From the NCBI GenBank assembly GCA_030390025.1, contig CM059431.1, positions 145,082,001 through 145,146,000 on the forward strand: DNA of 64,000 bases. The letters are read 5' to 3'. The position numbers were made by a program, and so were the translations under genes. Shown here in pieces: positions 10,190 to 63,538 of this stretch; position 1 is the first letter of the stretch, and every line of letters starts with the position of its first letter. The notes under the pieces are model-generated. The model saw only the letters and a list, made by a program, of their open reading frames with translations. It was not told the DNA's origin and made no database searches. This DNA is from Squalus acanthias. Lineage: Eukaryota.

Positions 10190-10433
10190 GAACATAAGAA
10201 CAGGAGGAAGTCTTTCAGCCCTGTCGTAAGAATGAGCCTTACGCGTGGTGAACTTAAAGTAAGCTTTAATCAACTAAAAAGGTGCTACATACAAAAGAGG
10301 TCTTACTCTATGCCTCTCCAGGATCCAACTGCTCAGTCCAGTATTTATCCTGGACTAATCACAGGAAGTGATGCAATAAAGTTCGAGTCACAGGAAGCTG
10401 TATTGTGTTACCACATTCTCCCCCCCCAAAAGA

Positions 10434-13400
10434 TTAGGAGGCCGGGATGCTCCCTCCATTTCGTAGCCGCCGGACGAGGGAGAGCCGCACCCGTTTGGGT
10501 TCTCGTAGCGGTAGAGGGCCCCTAGCCCGTTTACCCGCCGCGGGCCGTGGACCAGAGTCCGAGTGATCCAGCCCGCTCTGTGACGGGTCAGGACGATCCT
10601 GACTGTGTACTGGTGCCCGAACGGGTGTCGGGCAGGGCTGTGGCAGATCCGTTTCCGAGCGTATGGTACGGGGTGGATCGTGGCTGCGCGTGCGAGCCCC
10701 GACGGGCTCATAGTCAGTCTGCCCCAGGTCGGCACGCTGGAGTGAGGTACCAGCCGGCGTCAGATCCAGATTGTGATGAGAGGCACCTGGCGAGCCCAGA
10801 GATGTGCCTGGTACAATATCATCCCCTGGTGTCCCTCTATGTTTCGGCGGGCAGGGAGCCAGATCCCGCAATGACACGGTAGATTCCCGACCGTCAGGAT
10901 ATCGAATATAGGCGTAGGTAGGGTTGACGTCAGTGAGCTCAACCTCATCTACCAGGGGGTCATTCTTAGACGCCCGGACATATCTTCGGAGTAGCACTGG
11001 TCCCGGTGCAGTCAGCCACGACGGGAGAGATATCCCATAGGATGAGCGACGCTGAAATCGGAAGAACCGTTCATGAGGCGTCGTATTTGTGGCGGTCGAA
11101 AGGAGGGACCGTGTGGAGTGTAATGCGTCTGGAAGTACTGCTTCCCATTGCTGGTTGGGTAGGCCCCGAGATCTCAAAGCCAGACGTACCGCATTCCAGA
11201 TGATAGCGTTAAAACGCTCGACTTGCCCATTCCTGACCGGATGATAAGGCGTCGTTCTGCTGGCAGCAATACCCCGTTCCGAGAGATAGGCCTTGAGTTC
11301 TCCTGACATAAAAGAAGGGCCCCGATCCGAATGAACATAGGATGCCATGCCACAGAAAGCAAATACCTGCTCAAGGCAGCTGATAACCGTGGTCGTCAGC
11401 ATATTGGGGCAGGGAAAGGCAAACGGAAAACGGGAATACTCATCGACCATGGTCAATAGATAAGTGTTGCGAGTTGAAGAGGGCAACGGCCCCTTAAAAT
11501 CGATGCTAAGCCGTTGCATTGGCTGGGTCGCATGTATGAGTATACCACCCGAGGGGCGGAAAAACTGAGGTTTCAATTCCGCACAGACTCTGCAGTCCGA
11601 GCACCTCTTCTTTACATCCCCGGTAGAGAATGGGAGATTTCGGGACCGCACGAAGTGTAGCATGCGAGTAACGCCCGGATGACACAACCCATCATGGATG
11701 TCTACGAGCGTAGAGGGTGCCATGGCGGAGCAGAATGCTCGTGTGAGGGTATCCGGAGCCACATTCTCCTTGCCAGGTCGATAGTGGATGGTGTAACCAA
11801 AAGAGGCCAATTCCAGCCGCCAAAGCTGGATTTTATTATTTTTAATTTTGGTCCGTTTTCGATTATCGAGCATGAAGGCGACCGATCGCTGGTCCGTGAT
11901 TAAGGTAAAGTGCTGGCGAGCTAGGAGATGAGTCCACTTCCGTACTGCCTCTATGATGGCTGTAGCTTCTTTCTCGACTGGAGGATAATGTAGCTCAGCC
12001 CCTTGAAAAGTCCTGGACAAAAATGCCACCGGACGACCTTCCTGATTCAGAGTGGCCGAGATCGCCACCTCCGAGGCATCACACTCAACAACAAAAGGAA
12101 GACTCTCATCGATGGAGTGAAGAGCCGCTTTCTCCAACTGTTTTTTCAGGAGGTTAAAGGCTGCAACAGCCGCTGTGTCTAGTGGGAATGTGCTGGCCTT
12201 CAGTAGAGGTTGGATTCGGTCCGAGAAGTTAGGAATCCATTTAGCATAGTATGCAAACAGGCCGAGGGCCCGGCGCAAGGAGGCCGGATTCTTAGGTGGC
12301 GGGAGTTCTTGGAGTGGGCGAAGCCTTTCAGGGTCAGGTTTAATGATGCCATTGCCCACACAATAGCCAAGGATGTTGATGGTTGGTTGTGACTCAATGG
12401 ATTTAGCCGCATTTAATGTCAAATTACGGTGCTGGAGTGCATCCCAAAATCGTTGGAGATTGGCGTCATGTTCCCGCTGATTGCGACCTGCGACAGTAAT
12501 ATTGTCCAGATAAGGAAACGTATCCTTCAAGTCTTCCTGTTTGACCAGGTCATCCATTGCTCGCTGGAAGACAGCCACTCCATTAGTGACCCCAAAGGGG
12601 AGGCGACGAAATTGATACAGCCGTCCATTGGCTTCAAAGGCCGTATACTGCTTGTCTGAGACCTTCAAGGGTACCTGATGATAGGCACTTTTCAGATCAT
12701 ATGTTGAGAACACCGTGTACTCAGCCAGTATATTAACCATATCATCGATGCGCGGCAATGGGTATGCGTCCAAGTCCGTATATTGATTGATGGTCTGTGA
12801 ATAGTCAATGCACAGCCGTTTCTTGTGAGGTTGTAGAGGGTTCTTAACAATAACGACCTGGGCGCGCCATGGCGACGAACAAGGCTCGATGATATCCTCT
12901 GCTAAAAGCCGAGAAATCTCAGCCGCAATAAAAGACTGGTCTTCCTGACTGAAACGTCGTGACTTTGTTATAATCGGTTTGCATCGAGGAGGGATACTGG
13001 TAAACAGTGAGGGTTCATCCAGTGAAGCTGCTGACAATGCACAGAACGGTAATCGAGGTCGTATATTAGAAATAGTGAGTTCAGGTTTGGATCTGCCGAA
13101 CTCAATGGTGAGCTTCTTATGCTGCTTTTGAAAATCCAGCCCTAAGATAAGATCACTACATAAGTCCTTGAGCACCGAAAGCCGGGTGGAGGGATACCTG
13201 CGACCATTAAGTGTTATTTCAACCATACAAAAGCCAGAAATTCTGGTATTAAGTGATGACTGAGCCATCGCAATTGCCTGGTCCGATGGGAAAACATGTA
13301 GCTTTAACTCTGCAACAATCTGTTCCCTAATGAAACTATCAGTGCTACCTGAGTCAATTAAGGCATCTAAAGTATGTCCATTAATTGATGCTTTTGTAGC

Positions 13401-13727
13401 TGCATGGAATAGGTTCTGAGGACAAGCAGCTGTAATTGGTGTCGTTGCACAAAGAGTGGCTGAAACTCTAGGTGTGTTTCTTCGAGAGAAAACCCGAGAG
13501 GAAGCACGATAGATTTTAGCTGGAACATCTTGATAGGCCCTTACCGGGGCAGTTCGGTAGGACTTAGCTTGATAAGCCCTCGTAGAGGCTCTTGATAGGC
13601 AAACCTTTGCAAAATGACCCTTTTTGTTGCAATGACTGCAAAACGCATTGCGAGCAGGGCAGAATTTCCGAGGGTGAAACTCATCACCACAAAAGAAGCA
13701 TTTCTTAGATTGCCAAGAGGCTGCCAC
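10434..13727 (-). CDS. Gypsy polyprotein C-terminal part: double CCHC knuckle, protease, RT, RNase H, integrase
   Basis: CFFCGDEFHPRKFC..CSHCNKKGHFAKVC; LIDSGS; YDLKSAYHQ, LPFG, YLDN; ECDAS..EKEA..TDQR; H..H..C..C zinc finger and D..D..E integrase. Confidence 0.92.
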   Translation of the reverse strand: MAASWQSKKCFFCGDEFHPRKFCPARNAFCSHCNKKGHFAKVCLSRASTRAYQAKSYRTAPVRAYQDVPAKIYRASSRVFSRRNTPRVSATLCATTPITAACPQNLFHAATKASINGHTLDALIDSGSTDSFIREQIVAELKLHVFPSDQAIAMAQSSLNTRISGFCMVEITLNGRRYPSTRLSVLKDLCSDLILGLDFQKQHKKLTIEFGRSKPELTISNIRPRLPFCALSAASLDEPSLFTSIPPRCKPIITKSRRFSQEDQSFIAAEISRLLAEDIIEPCSSPWRAQVVIVKNPLQPHKKRLCIDYSQTINQYTDLDAYPLPRIDDMVNILAEYTVFSTYDLKSAYHQVPLKVSDKQYTAFEANGRLYQFRRLPFGVTNGVAVFQRAMDDLVKQEDLKDTFPYLDNITVAGRNQREHDANLQRFWDALQHRNLTLNAAKSIESQPTINILGYCVGNGIIKPDPERLRPLQELPPPKNPASLRRALGLFAYYAKWIPNFSDRIQPLLKASTFPLDTAAVAAFNLLKKQLEKAALHSIDESLPFVVECDASEVAISATLNQEGRPVAFLSRTFQGAELHYPPVEKEATAIIEAVRKWTHLLARQHFTLITDQRSVAFMLDNRKRTKIKNNKIQLWRLELASFGYTIHYRPGKENVAPDTLTRAFCSAMAPSTLVDIHDGLCHPGVTRMLHFVRSRNLPFSTGDVKKRCSDCRVCAELKPQFFRPSGGILIHATQPMQRLSIDFKGPLPSSTRNTYLLTMVDEYSRFPFAFPCPNMLTTTVISCLEQVFAFCGMASYVHSDRGPSFMSGELKAYLSERGIAASRTTPYHPVRNGQVERFNAIIWNAVRLALRSRGLPNQQWEAVLPDALHSTRSLLSTATNTTPHERFFRFQRRSSYGISLPSWLTAPGPVLLRRYVRASKNDPLVDEVELTDVNPTYAYIRYPDGRESTVSLRDLAPCPPKHRGTPGDDIVPGTSLGSPGASHHNLDLTPAGTSLQRADLGQTDYEPVGARTRSHDPPRTIRSETDLPQPCPTPVRAPVHSQDRPDPSQSGLDHSDSGPRPAAGKRARGPLPLREPKRVRLSLVRRLRNGGSIPAS

Positions 13728-14389
13728 AGTGGGGTCATCATCCTCTTCATCAGTGAAGTCATCAGATTGATCGTCAGGGATAAAGTCCTCCTAATAGAGT
13801 TCACCTGTGGCCTCTTAAATTGCCTGACTGTAGTTAAGGCAGCAGACCGAGGTCTGGGCACTGTATAAAGGTCTGCATTTCTTTTTGCCAGATCTAGAGA
13901 GCAAGCCATGTCATAAGCTCTCTGAAGCTCAAGTGTCTTACTTTCCAGTAGACGCTGGCGTATAAATGGGGAGGCAAGCCCGCAGATGAAAGCATCACGG
14001 ATCATTTCTTCACGGTACAGCTCAGCTGAGGCCGCCTGAAAGTTACAGTCCATACTAAGTCTGCGAAGCTCTTGGAGGAATTTATCAATGGATTCCTCCG
14101 GCCCTTGTTGGGCTGTAGCTAGTAGATGTCTGGCATAGACCTCATTCGGTGTCTTAGTATATAGTCTTTTAAGCGTCCGAATTGCCTCCTCGTAACTGCC
14201 CCATTCCTCAACATACTGAAATACATTCGGAGTGACACAGTTGATGAGTATCCGCAACTTTGTGTCATCATCAGCCTTGCAATATTCGAGAAAATTGTCA
14301 AACGTGCGATACCAGTGTTTCCACACCTTACCGGCTGCTGGGGTGTTTCGGTCCAAGTCAAGACGCGATGGTTTAAGGATGTTTTCCAT
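13541..14389 (-). CDS. Gypsy Gag N-terminal part, frameshifted at ~13790
   Basis: Near-identical to the N-terminus of the continuous ORF in copy C. One C is missing at 13790-13791 relative to 62938-62940. Confidence 0.85.
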   Translation of the reverse strand: MENILKPSRLDLDRNTPAAGKVWKHWYRTFDNFLEYCKADDDTKLRILINCVTPNVFQYVEEWGSYEEAIRTLKRLYTKTPNEVYARHLLATAQQGPEESIDKFLQELRRLSMDCNFQAASAELYREEMIRDAFICGLASPFIRQRLLESKTLELQRAYDMACSLDLAKRNADLYTVPRPRSAALTTVRQFKRPQVNSIRRTLSLTINLMTSLMKRMMTPLWQPLGNLRNASFVVMSFTLGNSALLAMRFAVIATKRVILQRFAYQEPLRGLIKLSPTELPR

Positions 14390-15358
14390 GATGGGTGATT
14401 CCCTGGATCCTTAGTTCCGAGTTCGTCCAAAAAGTTTGAGTGCGAAGTTTTTCAAAGTTGATTAAATTGTCGTAAGAATGAGCCTTACGCGTGGTGAACT
14501 TAAAGTAAGCTTTAATCAACTAAAAAGGTGCTACATACAAAAGAGGTCTTACTCTATGCCTCTCCAGGATCCAACTGCTCAGTCCAGTATTTATCCTGGA
14601 CTAATCACAGGAAGTGATGCAATAAAGTTCGAGTCACAGGAAGCTGTATTGTGTTACCACAAGCCCCTCGAGCATGTTCCGCTACTCAATTGTATCGTGG
14701 CCAATCTGTATTTTAAACCAATTTACCCACCTTGGTCCCCTAACCCTTAATACCCTTGCCTAACAAAACTAAATAAATCTTAGTTTGAAAATTGTCAATT
14801 GACCCCCAGCCTCCACAGCTTTTTAGGCTGAGAGTTTATATTTTTGGTATATTTTGTGTGAAGGAGTGCTTTCTGCCATAACTCCTGACCGGCCCAGCTC
14901 TTTTTAAGTAAATGCCCCCTTAGTCTGGACTCACCCACCAGATGAAATAGGTTTCTGTTCCACTAATGTAATCCCTTCAAATTCGTTATAATTCTGGCGA
15001 ATCAGTGTTGGACCACTTCAAGGTCAATGTATACTTCCTGAGGTGTGGAGCCCAGAACTGAACACAGTTCTCTCAATGGAGTCTAACCAGAGCGCTGTAC
15101 AGTTTTAACACAAGTTCCACCCCTTTTTATTCCAGCTTTCTTGAGATAAAGGCCAACATTCTAGTAGCATTGTAAATAGTCTTTTTCACATGTCCACTAT
15201 CTTTTCGCGATTTCTGTACCTGGACTCCCGAATCTCTCTGCTCATCCACAGTTTCTAACTTCTCACCATTTACAAAATACACTGATCTTTGGTTCTAAGT
15301 TCAACATTGAATGACCTCACACTTCCCCACATTGAACTTTATTTGCTACAGCTTTTGC

Positions 15359-33640: not shown

Positions 33641-34299
33641 GAGATACACATGTCTAACTCTTTACCCACGTGTCAAACTGGGCGCGTCTCTGATCAAACC
33701 CTCTCCTCTGAAATACAAAAGTCTCATTTGTGCTTTAATGTTATAGAACAAGTTAAACTCCTTTCACTGTTACATAAATTTCCACGCTGGGAATCTCCCA
33801 GTTCCACCGGAGGAGTTTCGTTGCTGCAGGCTACAGAATTAGAGCAAAGTTTCCGCAATTCTCTTTGTACCAAAATGCTTCAGAAAATGTGTCAGCGTCA
33901 TTTCCCTTTTCACACAGAATGTACAGCACAGAAACAGGCCAGTCGAACCGACTGGTCCATGTCAGTGTTTATGCTCCACATGAGCCGCCTTCCATCTCTC
34001 TTCATCTAACCCTATCATCCTAACCCTTTATTACTTTCTCCCTCATGTGTTTAATCAAGCTTGCCCATAAATGCGTCTTTTCTTTGCAGACAGGCTCTGT
34101 AACCTGGATCTTGCCTTCTCACCGACCCTGTGCCATTTACCAATGTTCCCTTGCTATAGTGTGGCCGGCTCACCGGATTTTAAAATCTGAAAAATGCGCA
34201 TGCGCGGTTTTTTGATCGTCCGCGTAGCCCCTTAAAGGGGCCGCACAACCGCAAAAATCTCAAAAAGAACAAAGCAGTACATCCGTTCTTGTTCCTCCG

Positions 34300-35383
34300 T
34301 CCCACTGACCCAGCGCTACACCCAAACCCCTACTGACCCATCAACCTAGTTCCACCCAACGTGATCCAGCATTCAACCAACACCCCACTCACCCAGCATC
34401 ACTTTCCACTCACCCAGCCCCACACCCACACCCAACTGACCCAGCATCACTCTCCACTCAACCAGCCCCACAACAACACCCCACTGACCCAGCATCACAC
34501 TCCACTCACCCAGACCCACTCCCCACTGACCCAGCATCACTCTCCACTCACCCAGACCCACACCCACACCCCACTGACCCAGCATCACACTCCACTCACC
34601 CAGCCCCACACCCACACCCCACTGACCCAGCATCACTCTCCACTCATCCAGCCCACACCAACATCCCACTGACCCAGCATCACTCTCCACTCACCCAGCC
34701 CCACACCCACACCCCACTGACCCAGCATCACTCTCCACTCATCCAGCCCACACCAACATCCCACTGACCCAGCATCACTCTCCACTCACCCAGACCCACG
34801 CCCACACCCCAGTGACCCAGCATCACTCTCCACTCACCCAGCCCCACAACAACACCGACTGACCCAGCATCACTCTCCACTCACCCAGACCCACACCCAC
34901 ACCCCACTGACCCAGCATCACACTCCACTCACCCAGCCCCACACCCACACCCCACTGACCCAGCATCACTCTCCACTCATCCAGCCCACACCAACATCCC
35001 ACTGACCCAGCATCACTCTCCACTCACCCAGCCCCACACCCACACCCCACTGACCCAGCATCACTCTCCACTCATCCAGCCCACACCAACATCCCACTGA
35101 CCCAGCATCACTCTCCATCACCCAGACCCACGCCCACACCCCAGTGACCCAGCATCACTCTCCACTCACCCAGCCCCACAACAACACCCACTGACCCAGC
35201 ATCACTCTCCGCTCACCCAGCCCCACACCCAAACCCCACTGACCCAGCATCACTCTCCACTCATCCAGCCCACACCAACATCCCACTGACCCAGCATCAC
35301 TCTCCACTCACCCAGCCCTACACCAACAGCCCACTGACCCAGCATCACTCTCCACTCACCCAGACCCACACCAACATCCCAGT
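34300..35383. repeat. 48-bp minisatellite, about 20 copies
   Basis: Unit CCCACTGACCCAGCATCACTCTCCACTCACCCAGCCCCACACCCACAC, made of two related subunits. Confidence 0.95.
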
Positions 35384-35385
35384 GA

Positions 35386-36420
35386 AATGTTACATTGTTA
35401 AAAGTAGTAACCTCCTCCTTACAATTTCAGCGTCTGAATAAACTGCCTCCTCTACAAATTCCTCAATGCCTCTTCTCTTCTATCCCCAGTGGTCATCATC
35501 AACTTGGAAAGCTGGCAATCGTCGAAAATGCAGAATCTCGGCGTGCTGTGGGGCTTTGAACTGTGAACAGCAAGTCAGGGAAAAAAGGCCATGTACATTA
35601 CCCATGTGAAGTTCAAACTAAATTATTGCTGGGGATTACAGCATTTTAGATTTAATTAACAGCCATTTAAGCATAGCTTAGTAATTCAGAGATTTAACTC
35701 ATTTGAGGCCAGTTTATTGGGGTTTCTATGTATTTGTGGTTAGTTGATTGTTGCTTTGATTTATACCCAATTCAGGAGATTAATTATTTACCAATGATTG
35801 ATAGAGGCCTGAAAGGACTGACATCGAAACTCGCAGAGCATGCCAGAATAGGAGACATAGTTAATTATTTAGAATTGCTGTAATTATACTCGGAGTGGAA
35901 GTAGGCTCGGTGCTGTGGAAGAGCAGACAGAAAGGGGACACAGATTGAAACGACATTAAAAGCAACACCTCAGGTTGAGAGAGTGGGAAAGAAGCTGTTG
36001 AAATTCTAGGTTTAATCAGGAGGTATAGAATATAAAACCCAAGAGGTAATGATGAGCCTATATCAAGCTTTAATAAGACCTCAGTTAGAATTATGTGTTT
36101 CAATATTGAACGTTGGTGTTTCTTTTGGTTAAATCAACGCAGATTGTGGGGCAATATGGTAGAAGTGTTTACAATTCTAAATCGGTGGGACAAGGTTGGT
36201 GAACTTTGTAACTATTTGTGTTAGTTTAATAATGCCAAATGTGATACCCACTCGGAGGTAGCTTCGTGCCTGTTGGTAATTTGTGTTGTTAGTTGTCAGC
36301 AACAGAGTAGTGATGGGGCTCTATTGAAAATGTGAGTAATTATTTTCATTAAAAGATTAGTAATGGAGAGCAGCCTACCTTTTCGTAATTTGAGTCGTTT
36401 CTTTATATGTAAAGATTCGT
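35386..36420. repeat. Duplicated block, paralogous to ~45099-46245
   Basis: Collinear match starting AATGTTACATTG.TAAAAGTAG and ending TATGTAAAGATT. Includes a shared decayed CR1 piece. Confidence 0.9.
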
Positions 36421-39319: not shown

Positions 39320-39745
39320 GGGAGAGGATGCGAGGGGAGAGGAGAGAGCGGAGTTCGTAGTTGAGACGGGGAAGAAAAGACGGAGGGGGAGGAGACGGGG
39401 GCGAGAAGACGAGGGGGAGGGTGGAAGAGACGGGGCCAGTTGACGTCAGAGAAGATGGGGAGGAGAAGGAAACGGAGGTAGATGGAAACGGGGGGAGAAG
39501 GAGACGTGGAGGAGAAGGGAGATGGAGCGGGAAGAAAGAGATGGGAGTGGAAGGAGACAGGGGGCGAGGGAGAAGGGGAGACAAGAAGACGGGGCGAAGA
39601 TATGGTACGGCGAGGAGACGGGGGAGGAGATGCGGCATGGAGACTGAGCGCAAGGAGAAGGGGTGCGTGGAAACAGGGACGTGGAGACGGGGGATGCGAA
39701 GAGCTTGGGGAGGTGAGGAGACAGGGGGTGACGGGACAGGGAGAC
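39320..39745. repeat. Purine-rich (G/A) low-complexity tract
   Basis: GGAGA / GAGACGGG-rich, with few pyrimidines on the + strand. Confidence 0.85.
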
Positions 39746-39749
39746 ATAT

Positions 39750-40330
39750 ATGCATCAGGATCCTGACAGATGTGTATGGGGTTTCACAGTGTATCAGGAT
39801 CCTGCCAGGTGTGTACGGGATTTCACAGTGTATCAAGAACCTGCCACGTGTGTATGGGGTTTCAGACTATATCAGGATCCTGCCACGTGTGTATGGGGTT
39901 TCACAGTGTATCAGGATCCTGCCAGGTGTGTATCGGGTTTCACATTGTTTCAGGATCCTGCCAGGTTTGTATGGGGTTTCAAAGAGTATCAGAATCCTGC
40001 CAGGTGTATATGGGGTTTCACAGTGTATCAGGATCCTGCCAGGAGTGTATGGGGGTGTCACAGTGTATCAGGATCCTCCCAGGTGTGTATGGGGTTTCAC
40101 AGTGTGTCAGGATCCTGCCCTGTGTCTATCGTTTTTCACAGTGTATCAGGATCCGGGCAGGTATGTATTGGGTTTCACAGTGTATCATGATCCTGCCAGG
40201 TGTGTATGGGGTTTGGCATTGTATCAGGATCCTGCCAGGTGTTTATTGGGTTTCACAGTGTATCCAGATCCTGCCAGGTGTGTATGGGGATTCCGTGTAT
40301 GAGCATCTTACCAGATGTGTACAGGACTTC
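39750..40330. repeat. 39-bp minisatellite, about 14-15 copies
   Basis: Unit CAGTGTATCAGGATCCTGCCAGGTGTGTATGGGGTTTCA. Confidence 0.95.
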
Positions 40331-40361
40331 ACAAAACCGGCCATTGGTAAGATTTACTCAC

Positions 40362-40406
40362 ACAGTGCAGGCCAACACCAGCATTATTCCTGTGTTAGAG
40401 TATATA
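40362..40406 (-). other. 45-nt candidate exon, paralog of 8566-8610
   Basis: TTCAG|TATATAC...CACTGT|GTGAGT. Confidence 0.55.
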
Positions 40407-45095: not shown

Positions 45096-46966
45096 TGCAA
45101 TGTTACATTGCTAAAAGTAGTGAACGCCTCCTCACCATTTACGAGTCTGAACAAACTGCATCCCTCTACAAATTCCTAACTGCCTGTTCTCTTCTCTTCC
45201 TTCCCGAGTGGACATTATGAACTTGGACAGCTGGCAATCGTCGCAAATGCAGCATCTCGGCAGTTATGGGGCTTGGAAATGTGAACAGCAATCAGGGAGA
45301 AAAAGGCACATATAAAGTTGTTAGTTTGTTATTGTTTCGGATTATAGCAGTTTGGAGTTAGTTTATTAATGCAGGAGGTTATAGCCATTTCAGCACAGCC
45401 TACTAATTTTAGAGATTTTACTCATTTGAGGCCAGTTTATTGGGGTTTCTATGTATTTGTGGTTAGTTTATTGTTGCTGTGGTTTATACCCAATTGAGAT
45501 AGATTAACTCACTTGCTAATGATTCACAGAGGCCTGGAGGGACTCGCAGCGAAACTCGCTGTGGAGACTAGAATAGGAGACATAGTTACTTATTTAGAAG
45601 AGCTGTAATTATACTCGGACTGGAAGTAGACTCGGTGCTGTGGAAGAGCAGAGAGATTTGGGGATACAGATTGAAAAAACATTAAAAGCAACACCTCAGG
45701 TTGAGAAATCGTGAAGCAACTGATGACATTCTAGGTTTATCGCGTGGTATAGAATATGAAACCCAAAAGGTAACAATGAGCCTATATAAAGCTTTAATAA
45801 AACCTCAGTTAGAGTTTTGTGTTTAGTATTGAGCTCCGCACTATAGAAAGGATGGAGACTTTAAAGATGGTTAAACACAGATTCATTGGGGGGCTGCCGG
45901 GTCTGAGGAACAACAAATATGCAGAAAGCTTTGAACGTTGGTGCTTCTTTTGGTTAAAACAACGCAGATTCTGGGGCAACATGATAGAAGTGTTTACAAT
46001 TATGAATCGGTGGGTCAAGGTTGCTGGAGGTTGTAACTTATTGTGTTCGTTTAATAATGCCAAATGTGATAACAAATAGCAGGTAGCTTCGTGCCTGTTG
46101 GTAATTTGTGTAGTTAGTTGTTAGCAACAGAGTAGTGATGGGGCTATATTGAAAATGTGAGTAATTATTTTCATTAAAAGATTAGTAATGGAGACCCGCC
46201 TACCTTTTCTTAATTTGATTCGTTTCTTTCTATGTAAAGATTAGTGATGTGACGCTCCTACCTGTTGGTAATCTGAGTAGTTCGTTTTTGTATAAACACC
46301 AGTGATGGAATCCTGCGACGTGTTGGTAGTTTGAGAGTCCGTGGGGAGACTGATGGAGACCAGGAGTGGGTTTAGCCTCAATATCCCCTGTGTAAAATGG
46401 ACTGCCCTCAGTCACTGTCTGAGCCCACACTCAGAGAATAGCTGCATTCCTGGCGCTGGGGAACACATCAGTCCGCGGGATACTGTAGTTAGAGAGGAAG
46501 GGAGAAAATAAAATCATAATACATCGGAATTAAGTTTAGAAGCTACATTAACCTTACCAAAATCCCGCAAGGATGATCTGTCACTATTTCCATATTGATT
46601 TTGCAAGTTATATCCTTGTTATTTCACTACAGCCAATCATTAGAAGTTTCTTGTTTCATTTGAGCAAGTTATAAATTGTGAATTTGATCTGATCCTTGTT
46701 CTGTCAGATACAGACCTCCGCCCTCTGTGTGAAAGCTGCTGCCCGCCCTCAGGATGGATTTACATACGAACATACAAATTAGGAGCAGGAGAAGGCCACT
46801 CGGCCCTTCGAACATGCTCCGCCATTCAATAAGATCATGGCTGATCCGATTACTTCACATGGAAACATAAACATAGAAGATAGGAGCAGGAGTAGGCCAT
46901 TCGGCCCCTCGAGCCAGTTCTGCCATTTAATGAGATCATGGCTGATCATCCAAATTCAGTACCCTG

Positions 46967-49900
46967 TGACGTAATAAAGATCACTACGCACTCGGTTGAA
47001 CATAAAGCAAGGCTTTAATCGACTTGTAACAAAGCATGGAGGTCTAGTTAGCAGTCACTAGCGTCCTGTTTCCAGATTGTCTCTGCCCAAGGTGGGCCCA
47101 CGCCCGAGTATTTAACTCCTCTGACGGCGCCCCAGCTGGCCTCCCAGTAGTACATCCCGAGTTACTTCTTGTAGAAGTTGCGATTAATGACATTCTTCCT
47201 CCCTAAAAGGTTTGGAAGTCCAGTCTTCCTTTAATGGACTAGGTGGACCAGAAATAGCCATAGTCATTTAGCTTTCCGCTTGTGACCAGAAGGTATGTCT
47301 CCCCGGACCGTGTCCTGGTCCCTGGATAGCTTGGCCCGTACCGGTAAGTCGGTAAAGTCCGCGTCATCTTGATCGCCCTGTGGAGGACTGGGAATATCAT
47401 GACTCCGAGTGCGGGTCCCCACAGGCAAAGAGCTGGCCTCATCCCAGGTCGTGGCTGGAGATTGTCCGGCGTCCTGGCTCGGGTGGCCATCCTACAGGGA
47501 GCGTCCGGCTCCCTGAGTTAATCCGGTAGCACTGCCAGCAGATCCCTCGAACTCCCAAGTGGGGCATCATTTTCATAGGGGTGCGAGGTGTTGACATCAT
47601 TGTCGTGCGATCCTTCATCATTCGGGCCCGGGTGACCGGTTGGGCAGGGAGCCAGATCTCTCAGTGAGACGGTGGCCTCCCAGCCATCAGGGTACCGTAC
47701 GTGCGCAAACGTGGGGTTTACCTGCGTTAACTCCACCTCGTCAACGAGAGGGTCGTATTTGGCATGCTGAAGAAACCCCCGGAGTAGCACAGGGACTGGA
47801 GCCACCACCATGACAGTAGAGACGTCCCATGTGTAGAGCGACGCCGGAATTTGAAGAATCGCTCCAAAGGCGGGACATTAGTAGATGTGGAGAGAAGAGA
47901 CCTGATAGAGTGTAACACGTCGGGGAGCACCGTTTCCCACTGCTGGTCCGGTAGGTTGCGTGCCCTCAGTGCCAGATGGACAGCGTTGCAGATGATGGCA
48001 TTGTATCGTTCAACCTGTCCGTTGCCGATTGGGTGATATGGTGTCGTCTTACTTGAGGCGATTCCCCGTTGGGAGAGATAACCTTTAAGTTCACTCGACA
48101 TAAAGGAGGGACCCTGATTGTGTGGATAAAATTTGCCATCCCGCAAAGGGAAAAGACCTGATCGAGGCATTTAATTACCGTAGAGGAAAGCATACTAGGA
48201 CAGGGGAAGGCGAAGGGAAAGCATGAATATACGTCTACCATTGTAAGTAGGTAGGTGTTCCGTGTCGACGAAGGCAATGGCCCTTTAAAGTCTATGCTGA
48301 GCCTCTGCATAGGCTGCATTGCATGTATGAGTAAGCCATCTGATCGGTGGAAGAATTGTGGTTGCAATTCTGCACAAATCCTACAGCAGGAGCATGTTTT
48401 CTTTACGTCCTCCGTTGAGAATGGTAGATTTTTGGAGCACACAAAGTGCAACATGCGGGTCACGCCAGGATGGCATAAGTCCATATGCAAATCCACCAGA
48501 GTCGACGTTGACATTGAAGAGCAAAATGCCCGTGTGAAGGTATCTGGGGCCACATTATGTTTGCCGGGTCGGTAATGGATAGTATATCCAAAGGCGGCCA
48601 GCTCCATCCTCCAGAGTAGAATTTTATTATTTTTGATTTTCGTGCGCTTCCGGTTATCCAACATGAAGGCCACGGAGTGCTGTTCAGTTATAAGCCTAAA
48701 ATGACGCCAAGCAAGAAAATTACCCCATTGGCGTACAGCTTCGATGATGGCCGTAGCCTCCTTCTCGACGGGGGGGGGGGGGGGTGCGGGGGGCCGGTAA
48801 TGGGTAATGGAGCTCGCTACCCTGCAAGGTTCTGGATAGGAATGCCACGGGTCGGCCACCTTGATTCAAGGTAGCCGAGATCGCCACCTCCGATGCATCG
48901 CATGCGACCACAAAAGGAAGGTTTTCATCAATGGAGCGAAGCGTAGCTTTCTCCAGCTGTCGTTTGAGGAGGTTGAAGGCAGAAATAGCCGTAGCTTCCA
49001 ATGCAAAAGACTTCGCATGGAGCAGGGGCTGAATTTTATCGGAGAAGTGTGGTATCCACTTTGCGTAATAAGCAAACATGCCAAGTGCCCGACGAAGAGA
49101 GCTGAGGTTCGTAGTTGGAGGGAGCTCCTGAAGTGGATGAAGTCGCTCTGGGTCCGGTTTAATAACACCATTGCCTACCCAATAGCCAAGAATGTTCACT
49201 GATGGCACCGATTTCACTGATTTGGATTCGTTTAACGTTAAGTGGCGACGACAGAGAACATCAAAAAATCTCTGAAGATTGGCGTCATGCTCCTTTTGAT
49301 CATGGCCGGCAATAGTGATATTGTCTAAATACGGAAAGGTATCCATCAAGTTCTGTTGCCGGACTAGGCCATCCATTGCCCGTTGGAAGACGGCCACCCC
49401 ATTGGTGACCCCGAATGAAAGGCGGTGAAATTGAAAAAGCCGACCATTGGTCTCAAAGGCCGTATACTTCTTGTTGGAGTCTTTCAGCAGCACCTGATGG
49501 TACACGCTTTTCAAATCGAAGGTCGAAAATACCTTGTACTTGGCAAGGTTGTTGACGATGTCATCTATGCGTGGTAGCGGGTAGGCAACCAGATAGATAT
49601 ATTGATTAATAGTCTGCGAATAATCGATACACAGACGTTTTTAATGTTGTTTTAAGGGATTTTTCACAATGACGACTTGAGCCCGCCAGGGAGATGAACA
49701 AGGCTCGAAAATACCGTCGACTAAAAGGCGAGAGATTTCTGCCTCGATAAATGCTCGATCGTCTTGGCTAAAGCGCTGCGATTTGGTGGCTATGGGTTTA
49801 CAGCGGGGGGAAGAGTGGCAAACAGGGAGGGTTCACCGAGTAAGGCCGCAGAGAGCGCACAACATGGCACCTTAGAAATGGTAAGCTCTGGCCTTGACCC

Positions 49901-51514
49901 TCGAAACTCAAAAGTGAGCCTCTTGTGCTGTTTCTGGAAGTCCTGTCCCAGAAGCACATCACTGCATAAGTTTTCGAGTACTCCGAGCCGGGTGGAGAGA
50001 TAACTGCGGCCATTGAGGATGAGGTTGACAAGACAGAAGCCAGAAGAATTGGTGGTCAGAGTCGTCAGAGCCATTGCAATCTCCCTGTCCGAGGGATAAA
50101 TGCGCAGTTTTAACCTGCTGACAGCCCGCTTACTAATGAAGCTGTCAGAGCTGCTAGAGTCGATTAGCGTGCTTAGAATGTACCCATTTACTGAAACCTT
50201 CGTGGCTGCATGGGACAAACTTTGGGGAAAAACAGCTGTGATAGGAGGAGGGGCAATTTTACTTTCGGCAGCTGTAGCCTTAACAATGGTTCTTGGGGGA
50301 TGAGCAGCTCCATAGATAGCAGCTGGGAAGCTAACAGGAGCTCTCGACCGGTATACTTTAGAGGAATGGCCTTTCTTGTTAGCAGAGGCCTGTGACTGGC
50401 ATACCTTGGAAAGGTGTCCTTTCTTGTTGCAATGATTGCAGGTCACATTACGAGCCGGGTAAAATTTTCTGTAATGGCACGCCCCTCCACAAAAGAAACA
50501 CATTCTTCCTGATTGCCAGGATGCTGCTAGGGCGGGGTTGTCATCAGCGAAGGCCTCTAGGGTAGGGTCGTCGTCCGTTAGAGTAGAGTCAACATCAGCG
50601 GGCGCATCCGCCCGAGACCTACCGAAAGACTGATTAAAGATGATAGCCGCCGCCCATGCACGTGGTGGGAGATACGTGTCTGCATTCTTCTTGGCCAAGT
50701 CCAGGGAACACGCCTGGTCATAAGCAGCCCGTAAATTGAGGGTTTTATTTTCCAGCAGGCGCTGACGTATAAAAGGGGACGCGATCCCATTGATAAAGGA
50801 ATCGCAGATCAGTTCCTCATGATACTGTTCAGCTGTAACCGCTTTAAGGTTACAATCCTTGCTGAGCCTGCGAAGTTTCTGGAGGAATTCATCGAGTGAT
50901 TCCCCAGGCTGCTGCCGCGTTGTGGCCAGAAGGTGTCGAGCAAAGATTTAATTCGGGGACTTGACATATAGCTGCTGTAAAATTCGGACAGCAGTGTCGT
51001 AGTCTATACAGTCCTCAATATAATCATACACATGAGGGGACACGTAGTTAAAAAGCATTCGTAACTTATTAGGGGCATCCGCCCTACATTCTACAAGAAA
51101 GTTGCTAAAGGTACGAAACCAATGCTTCCATACCTTCGCTGCCGCAGGTGCATTCGGGTCCAGGTCGAGACGAGCGGGTCTAAGGAGTTTTTCCATGATG
51201 GTTCAGTTTCTTGCCCTAGTTCCCTTCTGTGGTTCGAGTTGCAGCTGGTTGTTCCGAATCACCCAAAGCGTGGAGACGATGCAAGTCGATTAAATTGACG
51301 TAATAAAGACTCACTACGCACTCGGTTGAACATAAAGCAAGGCTTTAATCCACTTGTAACAAAGCATCGAGGTCTAGTTAGCAGTCTCTAGCTTCCTGTT
51401 TCCAGATTGTCTCTGCCCAAGGTGGGCCCACGCCCGAGTATTTATACTCCACGCACGGCGCCCCAGCTGGCCGCCCAGTCGTACTTCCTGAGTTACTTCT
51501 TGTAGAAGTTGCGA
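46967..51514 (-). mobile_element. Older Ty3/Gypsy (Mag-like) element, family B, decayed
   Basis: 3' LTR 46967-47192 (226 bp) with PPT at ~47193-47203. 5' LTR 51296-51514 lacks its outer 9 nt. gag-PR-RT-RH-IN is homologous to copy A but broken by stops and frameshifts. Confidence 0.93.
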
Positions 51515-52390
51515 CCTCGTCCTCGCCAATATACCTGTCGCAGATGCATCTGTCCATTACAGCACTGGTAGCAGTGACCACCGCACATTAATTTTGGTGA
51601 CGCAGTCCCGTCTTTCCACTGAGGACACCCTCCATCGTGTTGTGTGGCACTACCACCATACTAAATGGGATAGATTCAGAACAGATTTAGCAGCTCAAAA
51701 CTGGGCATCCATGATGCGCTGTGGGCCATTATCAGCAGCGGAATTGTATTCCATCACAATCAGTAAACACATGGCACGGCATATCCCTCACTCTACCATT
51801 ACCACCAAGCCAGAGGACCAACCCTGGTTCAAAAAGGAGTGTAGAAGAGCATGCCGGGAGCAGCAACAGGCGTACCTGAAAATGAGGTGCCAAACTGGGG
51901 AAGCTGGATCACAGGACTACATGCATGCTAAAAAGCGGAAGCATCATGCTGTAAACATGGATACGCGATCCCACAATCAATGGATCAGATCAAAGCTCTG
52001 CAATCCTAGTACTTTCCAGTCGTGAATGGTGGTGGACTATTAAACAACTAACGGGAGGAGGAAGCTCGATGAATATCCCTATCCTCAATGATGGTGGAGC
52101 CCAGCACGTGAGTGCAAAATACAAGGCTGAAGTGTTTACAACCAACTCCAGGCAGAAGTGCCGAGTGGATGATCCATATCGACCTACTCCCGAGGTCCCC
52201 ACCAGCACAGATTCCAGTCTTCAGCCAATTCGATTCACTCCACGTGATATCAAGAAACGGCTGAGCGCACTCTATACAGCAAAGGCTGTGGGCTCCGACA
52301 ACATCCCGGCTATTGTGCTGAAGACTTGAGCTCCAGAACTAGCCGAGCCTCTAGCAAAGCTGTTACAGTACAATTAAAACACTGGCGTCT
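51515..52390 (+). mobile_element. Non-CR1 LINE ORF2 fragment (probably the same type as 6180-7160)
   Basis: SDH motif, RVVWHY..WDRFRTDLAAQNW, QPWF..ECRRA and KAVGSDNIPAIVLK. Confidence 0.75.
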
Positions 52391-58318: not shown

Positions 58319-60684
58319 GTAACTACAGGCGGGTCAGTTTAACATCAGTGGTGAGTAACATTTTAGAAACAATCATCAAGGAAAAAATTAACGGGCACTT
58401 GGAGAGGTTTAAGCTAATTGAGGAGAACCAACATGGATTTCTAAAAGGCAGATCGTGTTTGACTAATCTAATTGAATTTTTTGATGAAATAACAGAGAGG
58501 ATTGATGAAGGGAATGCAATGGATGTTATCTACATGAATTTTCCGAAGGCGTTGGGCAAAGTAACACATAGAACGCTGGTTAACAAATTTGAGGTTCATG
58601 GAATAGATGGGTCAGCAGCTTTGGTAATGAATTGGCTTAAGGACAGAAAACAGCGAGTTGTGTTAAATGGCTGTTTTTCAGGTTGGAGGATGGTAGACAA
58701 TGGTGTTCTCCAAGGGTCGGTGCTGGGGCCACTGCTTTTTTGATATATATATAAATGACCTGGATATTGGAATACAGAGTAGAATTTCTAAATTTGCCGA
58801 TGACACCAAACTTAGAGGATGAATCTGCAACAGGACATAGAAAGGCTAGCATAATGGGCAGACAAGTAGCAGGTACAATTTAATACAGGGAATTGTGAGG
58901 TGAAGCATTTTGGCAGAAGGAACAAGGAGAAGCAATATACACGGAATAGCACAGATTTAAAGAGCGTGCAGAGAAAGAGGTACCTGGGAGTTGTTGTGCA
59001 TAGATCCCTGAAGGTGGCAGGACATATTGAGAGAATTTTTCGCAAAGCATATGGAATCTTGGGCTTTATAAATAGAGGTATTGAGTACAAAAGTAGAGAA
59101 GTTGTGCTGAACATTTATAAAGTGCTGGTTAAGCCACAACTGGAGTATTGCGTCCAGGTATAGTCACCAAACATTAGGAAGGATGTGAAGGCCCTTGAGA
59201 GGGTGCAGAGGAGATTTTCAGAACAGTTCCGTGGTTGGTGGATCTTAGCTATATGGACTGTTGGGAGAAAGTGCACTTGTTTTCATTAGAGCAAAGGAAG
59301 TTGAGGGACGATTTGATAGAGGTGTACAAGATTATGAAGGGTTTGGATAGGCAAGATAGGGAAAGGCTGATCCCACTAATTGGTGGAACAAGGACAAGGG
59401 GACACAGATTTAAGGTTTTGGGCAAGAGATACAGGGAGGACGTGAGGAAAAACTTTTTTACGCAGCGAGTGGTGAGGTCGTGGAATTCAGTGCTGTCGGA
59501 AGTGGTGGAAGTGGAGACACACAATATTTTCAAAGGGAGACTGTCTAGGCACTTGAGTGAAATAAACTTGCAGGGCTACAGGGATAGAGCGGGGGAATGG
59601 GACTGACAGGATTGCTCTACAGAGAGCCGGCACGGACTCGATGGGCCGAATGGCCATCTTCTGTGCCGTATGAGTCTATGAATATGACTCAATGACTCTA
59701 TGACTCTTTGACTCCTGCTCCTTATTCTTATGTTCTTATGTAGCGTAGGGTTACCATCAGAAATGTTAAAGTGTCGTTATTACCTCTAATGTTAGTGTAG
59801 AGACATCAATAATAATGTTAGAATAGGGTTACTACTAAAAATGTAAAAGTTGACTGAGCACCAGTAATGGTAGTGTAGACTCGCCATCGGAAGGTTACAG
59901 TTCGGTCACCGCAAGTTATGTTAGATCAAGGTCACCACCAATGACATTAGAATATAGTCACCTGCAGCAAAGTTAGAGTGGGGTCACTACCAGTAACGCT
60001 AGAGTATAGTCCTCACCAGTAGAATAACAACCAGCAATGCTAACATAGAGTCCGCAAAACATATGTCAGTGTACGGCCATTACCATTAATGTTATGTAGG
60101 GGGATTACCAGCAAATTTCCAATAAGGCTACCACCAGTAATGTTCGATTAGGGTCACTACCAGTAATGGTTGAGTAGGGTCACCACCAGTAATGGTAGAC
60201 TAGAGTCACCATCAATAATGTTAGAGTAGAGTCACCACCAGTAATGTTAGAGTTGGGTCACCACCAGTAATGTTAGAGTAGTTTCACCACCAGAAATGTA
60301 AGTGTAGAGTCACCACCAGTAATGTTAGAGTAGAGTCACCACCAGTAATGTTAGAGTACTTTCACCACCAGTAATGTTACAGTCGGGTCACCATCATTTC
60401 TTTTAGAGTAGAGTCACTAGCAGTAATGTCGTAAGAATGAGCCTTACGTGTGGTGAACTTAAAGTAAGCTTTAATCAACTAAAAAGGTGCTACATACAAA
60501 AGAGGTCTTACTCTATGCCTCTCCAGGATCCAACTGATCAGCCCAGTATTTATCCTGGACTAATCACAGGAAGTGATGTAATAAAGTTCGAGTCACAGGA
60601 AGCTGTATTGTGTTACCACATTCTCCCCCCCCCAAAAGATTAGGAGGCCGGGATGAAGTTCGAGTCACAGGAAGCTGTATTGTG

Positions 60685-61699
60685 TTACCACATTCTCCCT
60701 CCATTTCGTAGCCGCTGGACGAGGGAGAGCCGCACCCGTTTGGGCTCTCGTAGCGGTAGAGGGCCCCTAGCCCGTTTACCCGCCGCGGGCCGTGGACCAG
60801 AGTCCGAGTGATCCAGCCCGCTCTGTGAGGGGTCAGGACGATCCTGACTGTGTACTGGTGCCCGAACGGGTGTCGGGCAGGGCTGTGGCAGATCCGTTTC
60901 CGAGCGTATGGTACGGGGTGGATCGTGGCTGCGCGTGCGAGCCCCGACGGGCTCATAGTCAGTCTGCCCCAGGTCGGCACGCTGGAGTGAGGTACCAGCC
61001 GGCGTCAGATCCAGATCGTGATGAGAGGCACCTGGCGAGCCCAGAGATGTGCCTGGTACAATATCATCCCCTGGTGTCCCTCTATGTTTCGGCGGGCAGG
61101 GAGCCAGATCCCGCAATGACACGGTAGATTCCCGACCGTCAGGATACCGAATATAGGCGTAGGTAGGGTTGACGTCAGTGAGCTCAACCTCATCTACCAG
61201 GGGGTCATTCTTAGACGCCCGAACATATCTTCGGAGTAGCACTGGTCCCGGTGCAGTCAGCCACGACGGGAGAGATATCCCATAGGATGAGCGACGCTGA
61301 AATTGGAAGAACCGTTCATGAGGCGTCGTATTTGTGGCGGTCGAAAGGAGGGACCGTGTGGAGTGTAATGCGACTGGAAGTACTGCTTCCCATTGCTGGT
61401 TGGGTAGGCCCCGAGATCTCAAAGCCAGACGTACCGCATTCCAGATGATAGCGTTAAAACGCTCGACTTGCCCATTCCCGACCGGATGATAAGGCGTCGT
61501 TCTGCTGGCAGCAATACCCCGTTCCGAGAGATAGGCCTTGAGTTCTCCTGACATAAAAGAAGGGCTCCGATCCGAATGAACATAGGATGCCATGCCACAG
61601 AAAGCAAATACCTGCTCAAGGCAGCTGATAACCGTGGTCGTCAGCATATTGGGGCAGGGAAAGGCAAACGGAAAACGGGAATACTCATCGACCATGGTC
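60685..61699 (-). pseudogene. Integrase core/C-terminal remnant of copy C
   Basis: MVDEYSRFPF..HSDR..GQVERFN; out of frame with the upstream ORF after the deletion. Confidence 0.85.
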
Positions 61700-63538
61700 A
61701 TCCATTGCTCGCTGGAAGACAGCCACTCCATTAGTGACCCCAAAGGGGAGGCGACGAAATTGATACAGCCGTCCATTGGCTTCAAAGGCCGTATACTGCT
61801 TGTCTGAGACCTTCAAGGGTACCTGATGATAGGCACTTTTCAGAGCATATGTTGAGAACACCGTGTACTCAGCCAGTTTATTAACCATATCATCGATGCG
61901 CGGCAATGGGTATGCGTCCAAGTCCGTATATTGATTGATGGTCTGTGAATAGTCAATGCACAGCCGTTTCTTGTGAGGTTGTAGAGGGTTCTTAACAATA
62001 ACGACCTGGGCGCGCCATGGCGACGAAGAAGGCTCGATGATATCCTCTGCTAAAAGCCGAGAAATCTCAGCCGCAATAAAAGACTGGTCTTCCTGACTGA
62101 AACGTCGTGACTTTGTTATAATCGGTTTGCATTGAGGAGGGATACTGGTAAACAGTGAGGGTTCATCCAGTGAAGCTGCTGACAATGCACAGAACGGTAA
62201 TCGAGGTCGTATATTAGAAATAGTGAGTTCAGGTTTGGATCCGCCGAACTCAATGGTGAGCTTCTTATGCTGCTTTTGAAAATCTAGCCCTAAGATAAGA
62301 TCACTACATAAGTCCTTGAGCACCGAAAGCCGGGTGGAGGGATACCTGTGACCATTAAGTGTTATTTCAACCATACAAAAGCCAGAAATTCTGGTATTAA
62401 GTGATGACTGAGCCATCGCAATTGCCTGGTCCGATGAGAAAACATGTAGCTTTAACTCTGCAACAATCTGTTCCATAATGAAACTATCAGTGCTACCTGA
62501 GTCAATTAAGGCATCTAAAGTATGTCCATTAATTGATGCTTTTGTAGCTGCATGGAATAGGTTCTGAGGACAAGCAGCTGTAATTGGTGTCGTTGCACAA
62601 AGAGTGGCTGAAACTCTAGGTGTGTTTCTTCGAGAGAAAACCCGAGAGGAAGCACGATAGATTTTAGCCGGAACATCTTGATAGGCCCTTACCGGGGCAG
62701 TTCGGTAGGACTTAGCTTGATAAGCCCTCGTAGAGGCTCTTGATAGGCAAACCTTTGCAAAATGACCCTTTTTGTTGCAATGACTGCAAAATGCATTGCG
62801 AGCAGGGCAGAATTTCCGAGGGTGAAACTCATCACCACAAAAGAAGCATTTCTTAGATTGCCAAGAGGCTGCCACAGTGGGGTCATCATCCTCTTCATCA
62901 GTGAAGTCATCAGATTGATCGTCAGGGATAAAGTCCTCCCTAATAGAGTTCACCTGTGGCCTCTTAAATTGCCTGACTGTAGTTAAGGCAGCAGACCGAG
63001 GTCTGGGCACTGTATAAAGGTCTGCATCTCTTTTTGCCAGATCTAGAGAGCAAGCCATGTCATAAGCTCTCTGAAGCTCAAGTGTCTTACTTTCCAATAG
63101 ACGCTGGCGTATAAATGGGGAGGCAAGCCCGCAGATGAAAGCATCACGGATCATTTCTTCACGGTACAGCTCAGCTGAGGCCGCCTGAAAGTTACAGTCC
63201 ATACTAAGTCTGCGAAGCTCTTGGAGGAATTTATCAATGGATTCCTCCGGCCCTTGTTGGGCTGTAGCTAGTAGATGTCTGGCATAGACCTCATTCGGTG
63301 TCTTAGTATATAGTCTTTTAAGCGTCCGAATTGCCTCCTCGTAACTGCCCCATTCCTCGACATACTGAAATACATTCGGGGTGACACAGTTGATGAGTAT
63401 CCGCAATTTTGAGTCATCATCAGCCTTGCAATATTCGAGAAAATTGTCAAACGTGCGATACCAGTGTTTCCACACCTTACCGGCTGCTGGGGTGTTTGGG
63501 TCCAAGTCAAGACGCGATGGTTTAAGGATGTTTTCCAT
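61685..63538 (-). CDS. Gag-protease-truncated RT ORF of copy C
   Basis: 617-aa single frame running gag, CCHC x2, DSG protease and the RT N-half. The catalytic YDLK is mutated to YALK, and the ORF ends at the deletion junction. Confidence 0.85.
   Translation of the reverse strand: MENILKPSRLDLDPNTPAAGKVWKHWYRTFDNFLEYCKADDDSKLRILINCVTPNVFQYVEEWGSYEEAIRTLKRLYTKTPNEVYARHLLATAQQGPEESIDKFLQELRRLSMDCNFQAASAELYREEMIRDAFICGLASPFIRQRLLESKTLELQRAYDMACSLDLAKRDADLYTVPRPRSAALTTVRQFKRPQVNSIREDFIPDDQSDDFTDEEDDDPTVAASWQSKKCFFCGDEFHPRKFCPARNAFCSHCNKKGHFAKVCLSRASTRAYQAKSYRTAPVRAYQDVPAKIYRASSRVFSRRNTPRVSATLCATTPITAACPQNLFHAATKASINGHTLDALIDSGSTDSFIMEQIVAELKLHVFSSDQAIAMAQSSLNTRISGFCMVEITLNGHRYPSTRLSVLKDLCSDLILGLDFQKQHKKLTIEFGGSKPELTISNIRPRLPFCALSAASLDEPSLFTSIPPQCKPIITKSRRFSQEDQSFIAAEISRLLAEDIIEPSSSPWRAQVVIVKNPLQPHKKRLCIDYSQTINQYTDLDAYPLPRIDDMVNKLAEYTVFSTYALKSAYHQVPLKVSDKQYTAFEANGRLYQFRRLPFGVTNGVAVFQRAMDDHGR

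Follow-up and report, generated by a model that had tools for sequence, protein, structure and literature searches.

The primer-binding site (PBS) of a clade of Ty3/Gypsy retrotransposons is complementary to a segment of the elements' own LTR, and this LTR-PBS pairing is a real, clade-wide feature. The elements very probably self-prime in some form from that segment, a possibility that an earlier note on this DNA had raised and that is supported by the covariation of PBS and LTR, by a mutation hot spot at PBS position +14 and by rare aberrant insertions. The primer is likely the copy of the segment that lies in the 5' LTR.

Three elements in the window

Three related Ty3/Gypsy elements (A, C and B), all on the minus strand, were found in the window, i.e., the whole 64-kb stretch of DNA that was analysed (Table 1). 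Gag and pol occupy two frames in copy A, unlike in copy C and the relatives, in which they read through in one frame. Element B also has a U5 hairpin before the terminal CA, with a sequence unlike that of the hairpin in A. The A family is uniform (40 of 40 scored matches were 100% identical over LTR and leader, from 844 candidates), and short patterns spanning the LTR/PBS junction counted 2220 A-type and 701 B-type junctions across the 3.7-Gb genome (reversed-pattern controls gave 0). The A/B element group is young and abundant in this genome. Rfam and ARAGORN gave no matches within the window.

Table 1. Positions of the elements and of their pairing parts in the window
Feature	Position	Strand	Remarks
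Element A	10222-14661	-	young Ty3/Gypsy LTR retrotransposon, 4440 bp, 5-bp TSD
Element A, 5' LTR	14468-14661	-	194 bp; LTRs 194/194 identical
Element A, TATA-like box	14588-14595	-	start site would lie near 14566-14565, upstream of the paired segment
Element A, putative self-primer segment	14511-14521	-	11 nt, ATTAAA inside; AGTTGATTAAA
Element A, predicted cut	between 14511 and 14510	-	junctions here in L190, L195, L196
Element A, short helix	14498-14510	-	begins at first base past primer end; weaker 5-bp version
Element A, U5 hairpin	14471-14489	-	directly before terminal CA
Element A, spacer	14467	-	one base, between LTR end and PBS
Element A, PBS	14456-14466	-	TTTAATCAACT, complement of LTR segment, no TGG
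Element A, PBS+14/+15 mutation hot spot	14452-14453	-	putative reverse-transcription junction
Element A, gag frame	13541-14410	-	gag and pol in two frames in copy A
Element A, pol region	10434-13790	-	two CCHC knuckles, protease, RT (YLDN), RNase H, integrase; no chromodomain
Element A, polypurine tract	10416-10430	-	
Element A, 3' LTR	10222-10415	-	second segment copy at 10275-10265
Copy C	60427-63810	-	family A member, internal deletion; LTRs 193/194 identical
Copy C, pairing parts	segment 63670-63660, PBS 63615-63605	-	
Element B	about 46967-51514	-	older family; RT-RH 77% identical to A
Element B, pairing parts	PBS 51294-51282 TTTAATCGACTTG; 3'-LTR segment 47026-47014	-	complementary
Element B, 5'-LTR segment	51356-51344	-	one mismatch to PBS

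Several features of the surroundings were recorded as well. The start of the 5' LTR of B is replaced by other sequence (51515-51560) and its upstream TSD was not found; a further locus (L022) shares B's flank, and the locus seems duplicated. Copy C lies inside a 26-nt tandem array (59744-60429 and 63724-64000), and further tandem arrays with units of about 48 and 39 nt are located at 34281-35481 and 39661-40371. A C-type subfamily has the first ~40 nt of the LTR duplicated upstream of the PPT region (window about 60650-60700; also L196 and L197). A, B and L188 are in or beside the same abundant LINE-type repeat (window 14663-14732 and 46803-46973), but the flanks of other A copies are diverse, so this repeat is not a strict target. 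Elsewhere in the genome, three A junctions about 4247 bp apart (G000:C1:566457-575212) suggest a tandem element array with shared LTRs, and one A copy (L065) has a 5' LTR truncated inside U5 and a G15 variant.

Pairing between the PBS and the LTR

The earlier note had placed the pairing parts of A, C and B, and every position was verified against the window sequence. A reads CA-A-TTTAATCAACT, the exact complement of AGTTGATTAAA in its LTR; copy C has the same pairing; and in family B TTTAATCGACTTG pairs with the segment of the 3' LTR and has one mismatch to the 5'-LTR copy (Table 1). The segment had been put forward as a possible internal primer about 45 nt from the LTR end: the distance stands (the 3' end of the segment is 43 nt away in A and 48 nt in B), and the internal position of the primer is the favoured reading. 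The compensatory change between A and B, on which the note had leaned, is present but weak when taken alone, because a U-G wobble can serve as its intermediate and each of its halves is a CpG-type change; of 27 old B copies, 10 show an LTR T facing a PBS G. It is the wider clade, and not this single change, that supplies the strong covariation.

The PBS-LTR pairing is not due to chance. A complement to the 11-nt PBS was present in 0 of 5000 dinucleotide-shuffled LTRs (the longest was 10 nt), and none of ~4000 pseudo-PBS positions inside element A reaches an 11-nt complement.

Covariation across the clade

Relatives were collected from metagenome contigs (the best 80 of 524 confirmed stretches) and from MAG contigs (7 loci, which are apparently eukaryotic contaminants), and an HMM screen for the gag start found it in 45 of these 87 loci. 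A perfect inverted repeat of 11-19 bp in PBS geometry was present in 39 of the 45 loci with a gag start, compared to 2 of 205 shuffles. One locus (L099) has an inverted repeat of 9 bp, and the five without a repeat comprise a single, apparently decayed locus seen in two assemblies, two loci in which no 5' LTR could be recognised and one that extends only 118 nt upstream. In loci with both LTRs, their comparison set the LTR end independently. Among viral contigs, 87 pattern matches contained no relative.

The loci were collapsed into 28 families chosen by their inverted repeat, which together with A and B gave 30 families with an RT-RH identity of 40-93% (median 55%). At PBS positions 1-11, 329 of 330 pairs are Watson-Crick (cross-family value 0.65), a figure that is partly selected because the families were picked by the inverted repeat. 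Pairing continues at positions 12-13 (55/60; cross-family 0.40) and 14-16 (53/90; cross-family 0.39), and 45 of 180 positions are paired at 17-22 (cross-family 0.26). There are 29 distinct PBS 13-mers among the 30 families, and positions 6-13 match the family's own LTR at 0.97 and the LTRs of other families at 0.51. The spacer between LTR and PBS reads CA-A in 26 families and CA-T in two, the loop length ranges from 21 to 70 nt, RCY follows the segment directly in 27 families, and a TGG-type tRNA PBS is found in 0 of the 30. Larger alignments, which the note had named as the place to look, thus bear out the covariation: the pairing holds across 30 families and the cross-family control is lower.

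Within this genome, in which three PBS variants coexist, the subfamily B' has an A at PBS position 8, from which a T in its LTR was predicted; the prediction was confirmed in 100 of 100 listed copies (608 matches), and the segment is intact in 98 of 100 listed copies. In a further locus (L093), a transversion in both LTRs is accompanied by a compensating change in the PBS and by a change at +14. A host RNA (a tRNA fragment or snRNA) that primes while the LTR match is incidental has precedents in the half-tRNA primers reported for some Copia lineages (PMC6317226, PMC10886601), but the number of distinct PBS 13-mers, the difference between own and foreign LTR matches and the three variants side by side in one genome speak against it, and we regard such a primer as extremely improbable.

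The named protein relatives belong to prawns and a copepod, to cnidarians, to a nematode and to cartilaginous fishes. The RT of the window is nearer to prawn and soft-coral relatives (P0005, P0034, P0014; 67-70%) than to those of other cartilaginous fishes (P0074, P0112, P0120; 57-59%), which may be a hint of horizontal transfer.

A helix at the predicted cut and the poly(A) signal

In 22 of 30 families, against an expectation of 7.2, a stem of at least 4 bp begins with the base that directly follows the segment, usually with the pairs GCCT/AGGC, ACCT/AGGT or GCCT/AGGT. This stem is weak in A and absent in B, each of which has a U5 hairpin of its own ahead of the terminal CA. The A leader folds with modest z-scores (-0.8 to -2.2), to which no weight was given; the folds of the 30 leaders consist mostly of local hairpins in the loop, and the PBS side is covered 18 nt from the PBS start.

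The earlier note had also considered that the pairing silences the 5' poly(A) signal. In HIV-1, a hairpin occludes the 5' poly(A) signal, and a duplex with a regulatory role of this kind (or in packaging or translation), combined with another primer, would fit the overlap of AATAAA/ATTAAA with the paired segment in 17 of 30 families. As a general function, however, silencing does not hold up: 13 families pair without a canonical hexamer in the duplex (it lies downstream in the unpaired loop in 3 of 30, and none is nearby in 10 of 30). Moreover, the spacing from the LTR end holds at one base across loops of different length, no other PBS is present, and regulation predicts neither the hot spot at +14 nor the junctions at the cut site described below. 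A purely regulatory duplex is accordingly given very little credence, and masking of the poly(A) signal could be a side benefit.

A mutation hot spot at PBS position +14

Substitutions near the PBS were tallied by hand among the matches listed. In the A' subfamily (first 100 listed of 390), position +14 is T in 71 copies, G in 28 and deleted in one, and the listed copies show 2 other changes in about 4900 free bases; in 20 fetched A' copies the T and G forms lie on one haplotype, and one fetched copy (L175) has an extra G on the A haplotype. Of 100 listed copies of the A group, 46 depart from the window sequence within +12 to +15, compared with 3 changes in 600 bases at +6 to +11. Position +14 is A in 71 and G in 19 of 90 listed B' rows, and among 27 old B copies (30 minus 3 rearranged ones) it has five states and the highest entropy of 1606 columns. 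Two metagenome families are also variable at +14, one of which could pair on to 19 bp. The position of the hot spot is independent of the duplex length (11, 12, 13 or 19 bp), which suggests a ruler. For Ty3 RT, a distance of about 13 bp between the active site of the polymerase and that of RNase H is reported (PMC5371799), and Tf1 RT is described as putting non-templated bases on most cDNA 3' ends (PMC11042837).

A 13-nt primer copied into the PBS in every cycle was considered and rejected for A: 0 normal elements are converted at +12, no normal A element having a non-T there, and in A and A' positions 12-13 (or 13) remain unpaired. The T-G wobbles that persist in old B likewise speak against simple primer copying into the PBS, whereas the concerted changes of L093 would count for occasional copying. 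Slippage may play a part in family A, where base runs adjoin the main variant at +15; primer copying with an added base does not explain this family.

A homoplasy test of +14 in old B was abandoned on a star-like tree (2 of 27 inner branches starred, 12 changes). Linkage among old B sites is low throughout (r2 at most 0.42) and its lack at +14 was for this reason not used as evidence, unlike the five states of that position; in the corresponding copies (L021-L050), the low linkage of mid-frequency sites suggests heavy recombination among co-packaged RNAs. The B LTR also has a non-CpG T/G polymorphism 27 nt before the primer end (window 51370; 8 of 27 B copies and 4 of 100 B' copies), within a motif, AGACCTC, that is also found in the A LTR. 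This site was tried as a start mark left by copying of the cap and rejected, since it is not the only biallelic site without linkage and family A has no such site.

Aberrant insertions and the putative priming copy

Patterns in which the PBS continues as LTR complement beyond the normal duplex were searched, and all seven places obtained (3 A-type, 4 B-type, none for A') were fetched. Such insertions are rare (7 vs about 2900 normal junctions). In L188, L189, L190, L191/L192, L195 and L196, the PBS runs on, with every base matching, as the reverse complement of the segment and of the sequence upstream of it; each end of the insertions is an LTR terminus, and TSDs of 5 bp flank them (in L188, 4 of 5). 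L188 reads LTR-A-inverted LTR and ends exactly at the LTR terminus. In L189 and L191, both with exact TSDs, the inverted copy crosses U3, enters the PPT and takes in internal sequence (126 nt or about 1.5 kb) before it rejoins; L192 is a tandem duplicate of L191 (639/640 identical). L190 consists of an LTR that is interrupted precisely at ATTAAA|GCCT by an insert of 120 nt. The opening 18 nt of this insert are those with which minus-strand DNA should begin; a 3-nt microhomology then leads over to internal sequence in minus sense, and after one additional A the U5 sequence is taken up again precisely at GCCT. Each LTR of L195 and of L196 has nt 1-17 of U3 fused to U5 at the cut site, with a 5-nt microhomology; the read-through stops at LTR position 96 (= 14566, about 30 nt after the TATA-like box, with a 7-of-8 microhomology) in L195 and at position 35, in U3, in L196. 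A second junction at the predicted cut AAA|GC is thus present in three insertions (L190, L195 and L196). L195 and L196 share the mini-LTR and may share an origin, which leaves at least five independent events.

The aberrant insertions preserve the covalent junction between segment and minus strand at single-base precision, and they preserve strong-stop ends that fall on the predicted cut. Template switching at the inverted repeat could produce them. One might also suppose that the pairing is maintained by fold-back or conversion at the DNA level during reverse transcription and has no role in priming; the snap-back in L188 ends exactly at the LTR terminus, so fold-back occurs here, but such a process leaves the clade without a primer and fails to explain the fixed one-base start of the repeat and the helix after the segment, and it is a most doubtful explanation.

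A 5' primer tail could not by itself serve as template for most of the read-throughs, which reach U3 or run past it. The primer might instead be the copy of the segment in the 3' LTR, with the RNA cut after the hexamer and the poly(A) tail removed, so that the 3' end of the genome primes either in cis (on a circularised RNA) or on a partner RNA. This would suit the read-throughs of L189 and L191, which carry all of U3, the PPT complement and internal sequence, that of L196 into U3, the direct joining of U3 and segment to the first 18 nt of the minus strand in L190, and the coincidence of the primer end with a canonical hexamer in 17 of 30 families. However, a misdirected second strand transfer after priming from the 5' copy yields the same products, so the insertions do not tell which LTR copy primes; L190, L195 and L196 point to strong-stop DNA with its end at the cut site and hence to a cut in the 5' copy; and the supporting insertions are few beside the normal junctions. 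We consider priming from the 3' copy improbable; if it were true, initiation and the first strand transfer would be coupled in one circularised RNA or RNA dimer, a mechanism of which no description was found in the parts of the literature examined.

Start of the transcript

If the 5' copy primes, as we prefer, the primer would be either internal, with a 5' tail, or the very start of the transcript, as in Tf1. A start upstream of the segment, unlike that of Tf1, is suggested by TATA-like boxes 84 nt (A) and 102 nt (B) before the primer end, the excess pairing at positions 14-16, the pyrimidine at -13 (25 of 30 families) and the stop of the L195 read-through; we adopt it tentatively, at slightly below an even chance. 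A start at the segment is favoured by the motif YNAGTY at -13 to -8 (G at -10 in 24 of 30 families, A at -11 in 22 of 30), which we take to be initiator-like, by the TATA boxes that L131 and L142 have at -38 and -44, and by the finding that no TATA position is conserved across the 30 families. We judge this second arrangement rather unlikely. One raw-read RNA run yielded 0 reads for the elements.

A possible course of priming

Priming from the 5'-LTR copy would proceed as follows. Over the 11-19 bp read from the sequences, the segment would pair with the PBS, a single base beyond the LTR, and the short RCCT/AGGY helix, whose conservation was observed and whose structure is predicted, would start at the next base. 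By analogy with Tf1, and in keeping with the insertions, the RNase H of the element would cut at AAA|RCY, which would free a 3'-OH on the segment and make RCY the new template end. Minus-strand DNA would then copy the spacer base and 20-70 nt of U5 and be transferred to the 3' LTR via the RNA that remains downstream of the poly(A) hexamer. Finally, an end of the plus strand or a template nick 13 nt from initiation may leave the scar observed at PBS+14, a distance that matches that between the two active sites of Ty3 RT. The chemistry of priming can in this clade be read from genome sequence, through the scar at PBS+14 and the rare aberrant insertions. As no tRNA primer is needed, the elements should also lack the usual target of silencing by 3' tRNA fragments.

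Classification and comparison with known systems

The elements have the protease-RT-RNase H-integrase order, TG..CA LTRs, a PPT and a 5-bp TSD, as expected of Ty3/Gypsy. The markers of the Mag lineage, as listed in PMC5408684, are a CCHC pair, a single frame, no GPY/F and no chromodomain. Two adjacent CCHC knuckles are present (in the translations and as conserved C/H columns); gag, protease and RT lie in one frame in copy C, and many relatives are single proteins of about 1200 aa; a GPY/F motif was not seen by eye in the integrase tail, and no matching Pfam family was shown. There is no Chromo domain in the pol of A, in the Pfam lists of 120 relatives or in 36 aligned relatives at E 0.05 (25 of 27 Pfam families shown), so the elements are not members of the Tf1/sushi chromoviruses despite their Tf1-like working. 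By these structural markers only, the clade would be Mag-like (the RT-RH tree was built without an outgroup). The searchable supplements of PMC6238403 and PMC8556966 contained none of three RT motifs, and a comparison with PDB and the ESM Atlas gave no named clade for the RT of the window. Known Mag elements (A/B/C clades, SURL, MolGy3/11) are described with the same short LTRs and wide metazoan range (PMC6238403); they differ in that self-priming is not described for them in the portions of the literature examined.

The closest solved RT is that of Ty3 of Saccharomyces cerevisiae (E 1.6e-58). Ty3 is similar in that its PBS is reported not to be perpetuated by primer copying (PMC5371799), and differs in being tRNA-primed and in its YLDD motif, where the RT of the window has YLDN. 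Among 121 proteins, 94 have xxDN, 16 have xxDD and 11 were not parsed. The YLDN form of Ty3 (D214N) is reported to be lethal for transposition in vivo (PMC5371799), though a family with this same change has recently made thousands of copies here.

In the open full-text papers searched, no self-priming was described for this clade and YLDN was not found together with a gypsy retrotransposon. PMC12471100, on Saci2-like elements that could concern a related clade, gave no match to YLDN or 'self-priming'. Skipper and bivalve TRIMs are reported without a tRNA PBS, and for Skipper the authors state that they found no LTR complement (PMC5006619, PMC6934838). The plant Copia elements TAR, Houba and Osr-1 form a separate LTR lineage with an LTR-complementary PBS (PMC6317226); they belong to another superfamily with other hosts, and self-priming, which is predicted there for TAR (PMC6317226), is a prediction only.

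The most similar system is that of Tf1/Tf2 of S. pombe and the Tf1/sushi group (Tj1, Tosmo, Tcn1), in which the PBS complements the element's own LTR without a tRNA; self-priming is described for Tf1/sushi, Tj1 and Tcn1 (PMC6317226, PMC4600332, PMC10085805). Both Tf1 and family A have an 11-nt duplex, the RNase H cut at the primer 3' end that is shown for Tf1 would take place here as well, and accessory helices adjoin the primer duplex (PMC7175516, PMC10085805, PMC4600332). In Tf1 the first 11 nt serve as primer, after cleavage between nt 11 and 12 (PMC7175516), whereas here an internal primer is favoured. Tf1 is reported to need accessory duplexes, the 'pretzel' (PMC10085805), which joins the LTR with PBS-adjacent sequence, whereas the accessory helix here is predicted to be a local RCCT/AGGY hairpin after the cut. 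The present clade further differs from Tf1 in the lack of a chromodomain, a duplex of usually 13-19 bp, the overlap of the primer end with the poly(A) hexamer in many families, an RT motif that is mostly YxDN, and hosts that are aquatic metazoans. Its design probably differs from that of Tf1, with an internal primer that overlaps the poly(A) signal and a hairpin stacked at the cut. These elements bear on the question, raised in PMC3601003, of whether hairpin priming is ancestral or has arisen repeatedly. Experiments have shown self-priming in a yeast chromovirus, and predictions extend it to the relatives of that element and to one plant Copia lineage. The present elements would add a large lineage of aquatic animals that lacks a chromodomain, has ~2900 junction copies in this genome and counts named relatives from a nematode, from cnidarians and crustaceans and from cartilaginous fishes.
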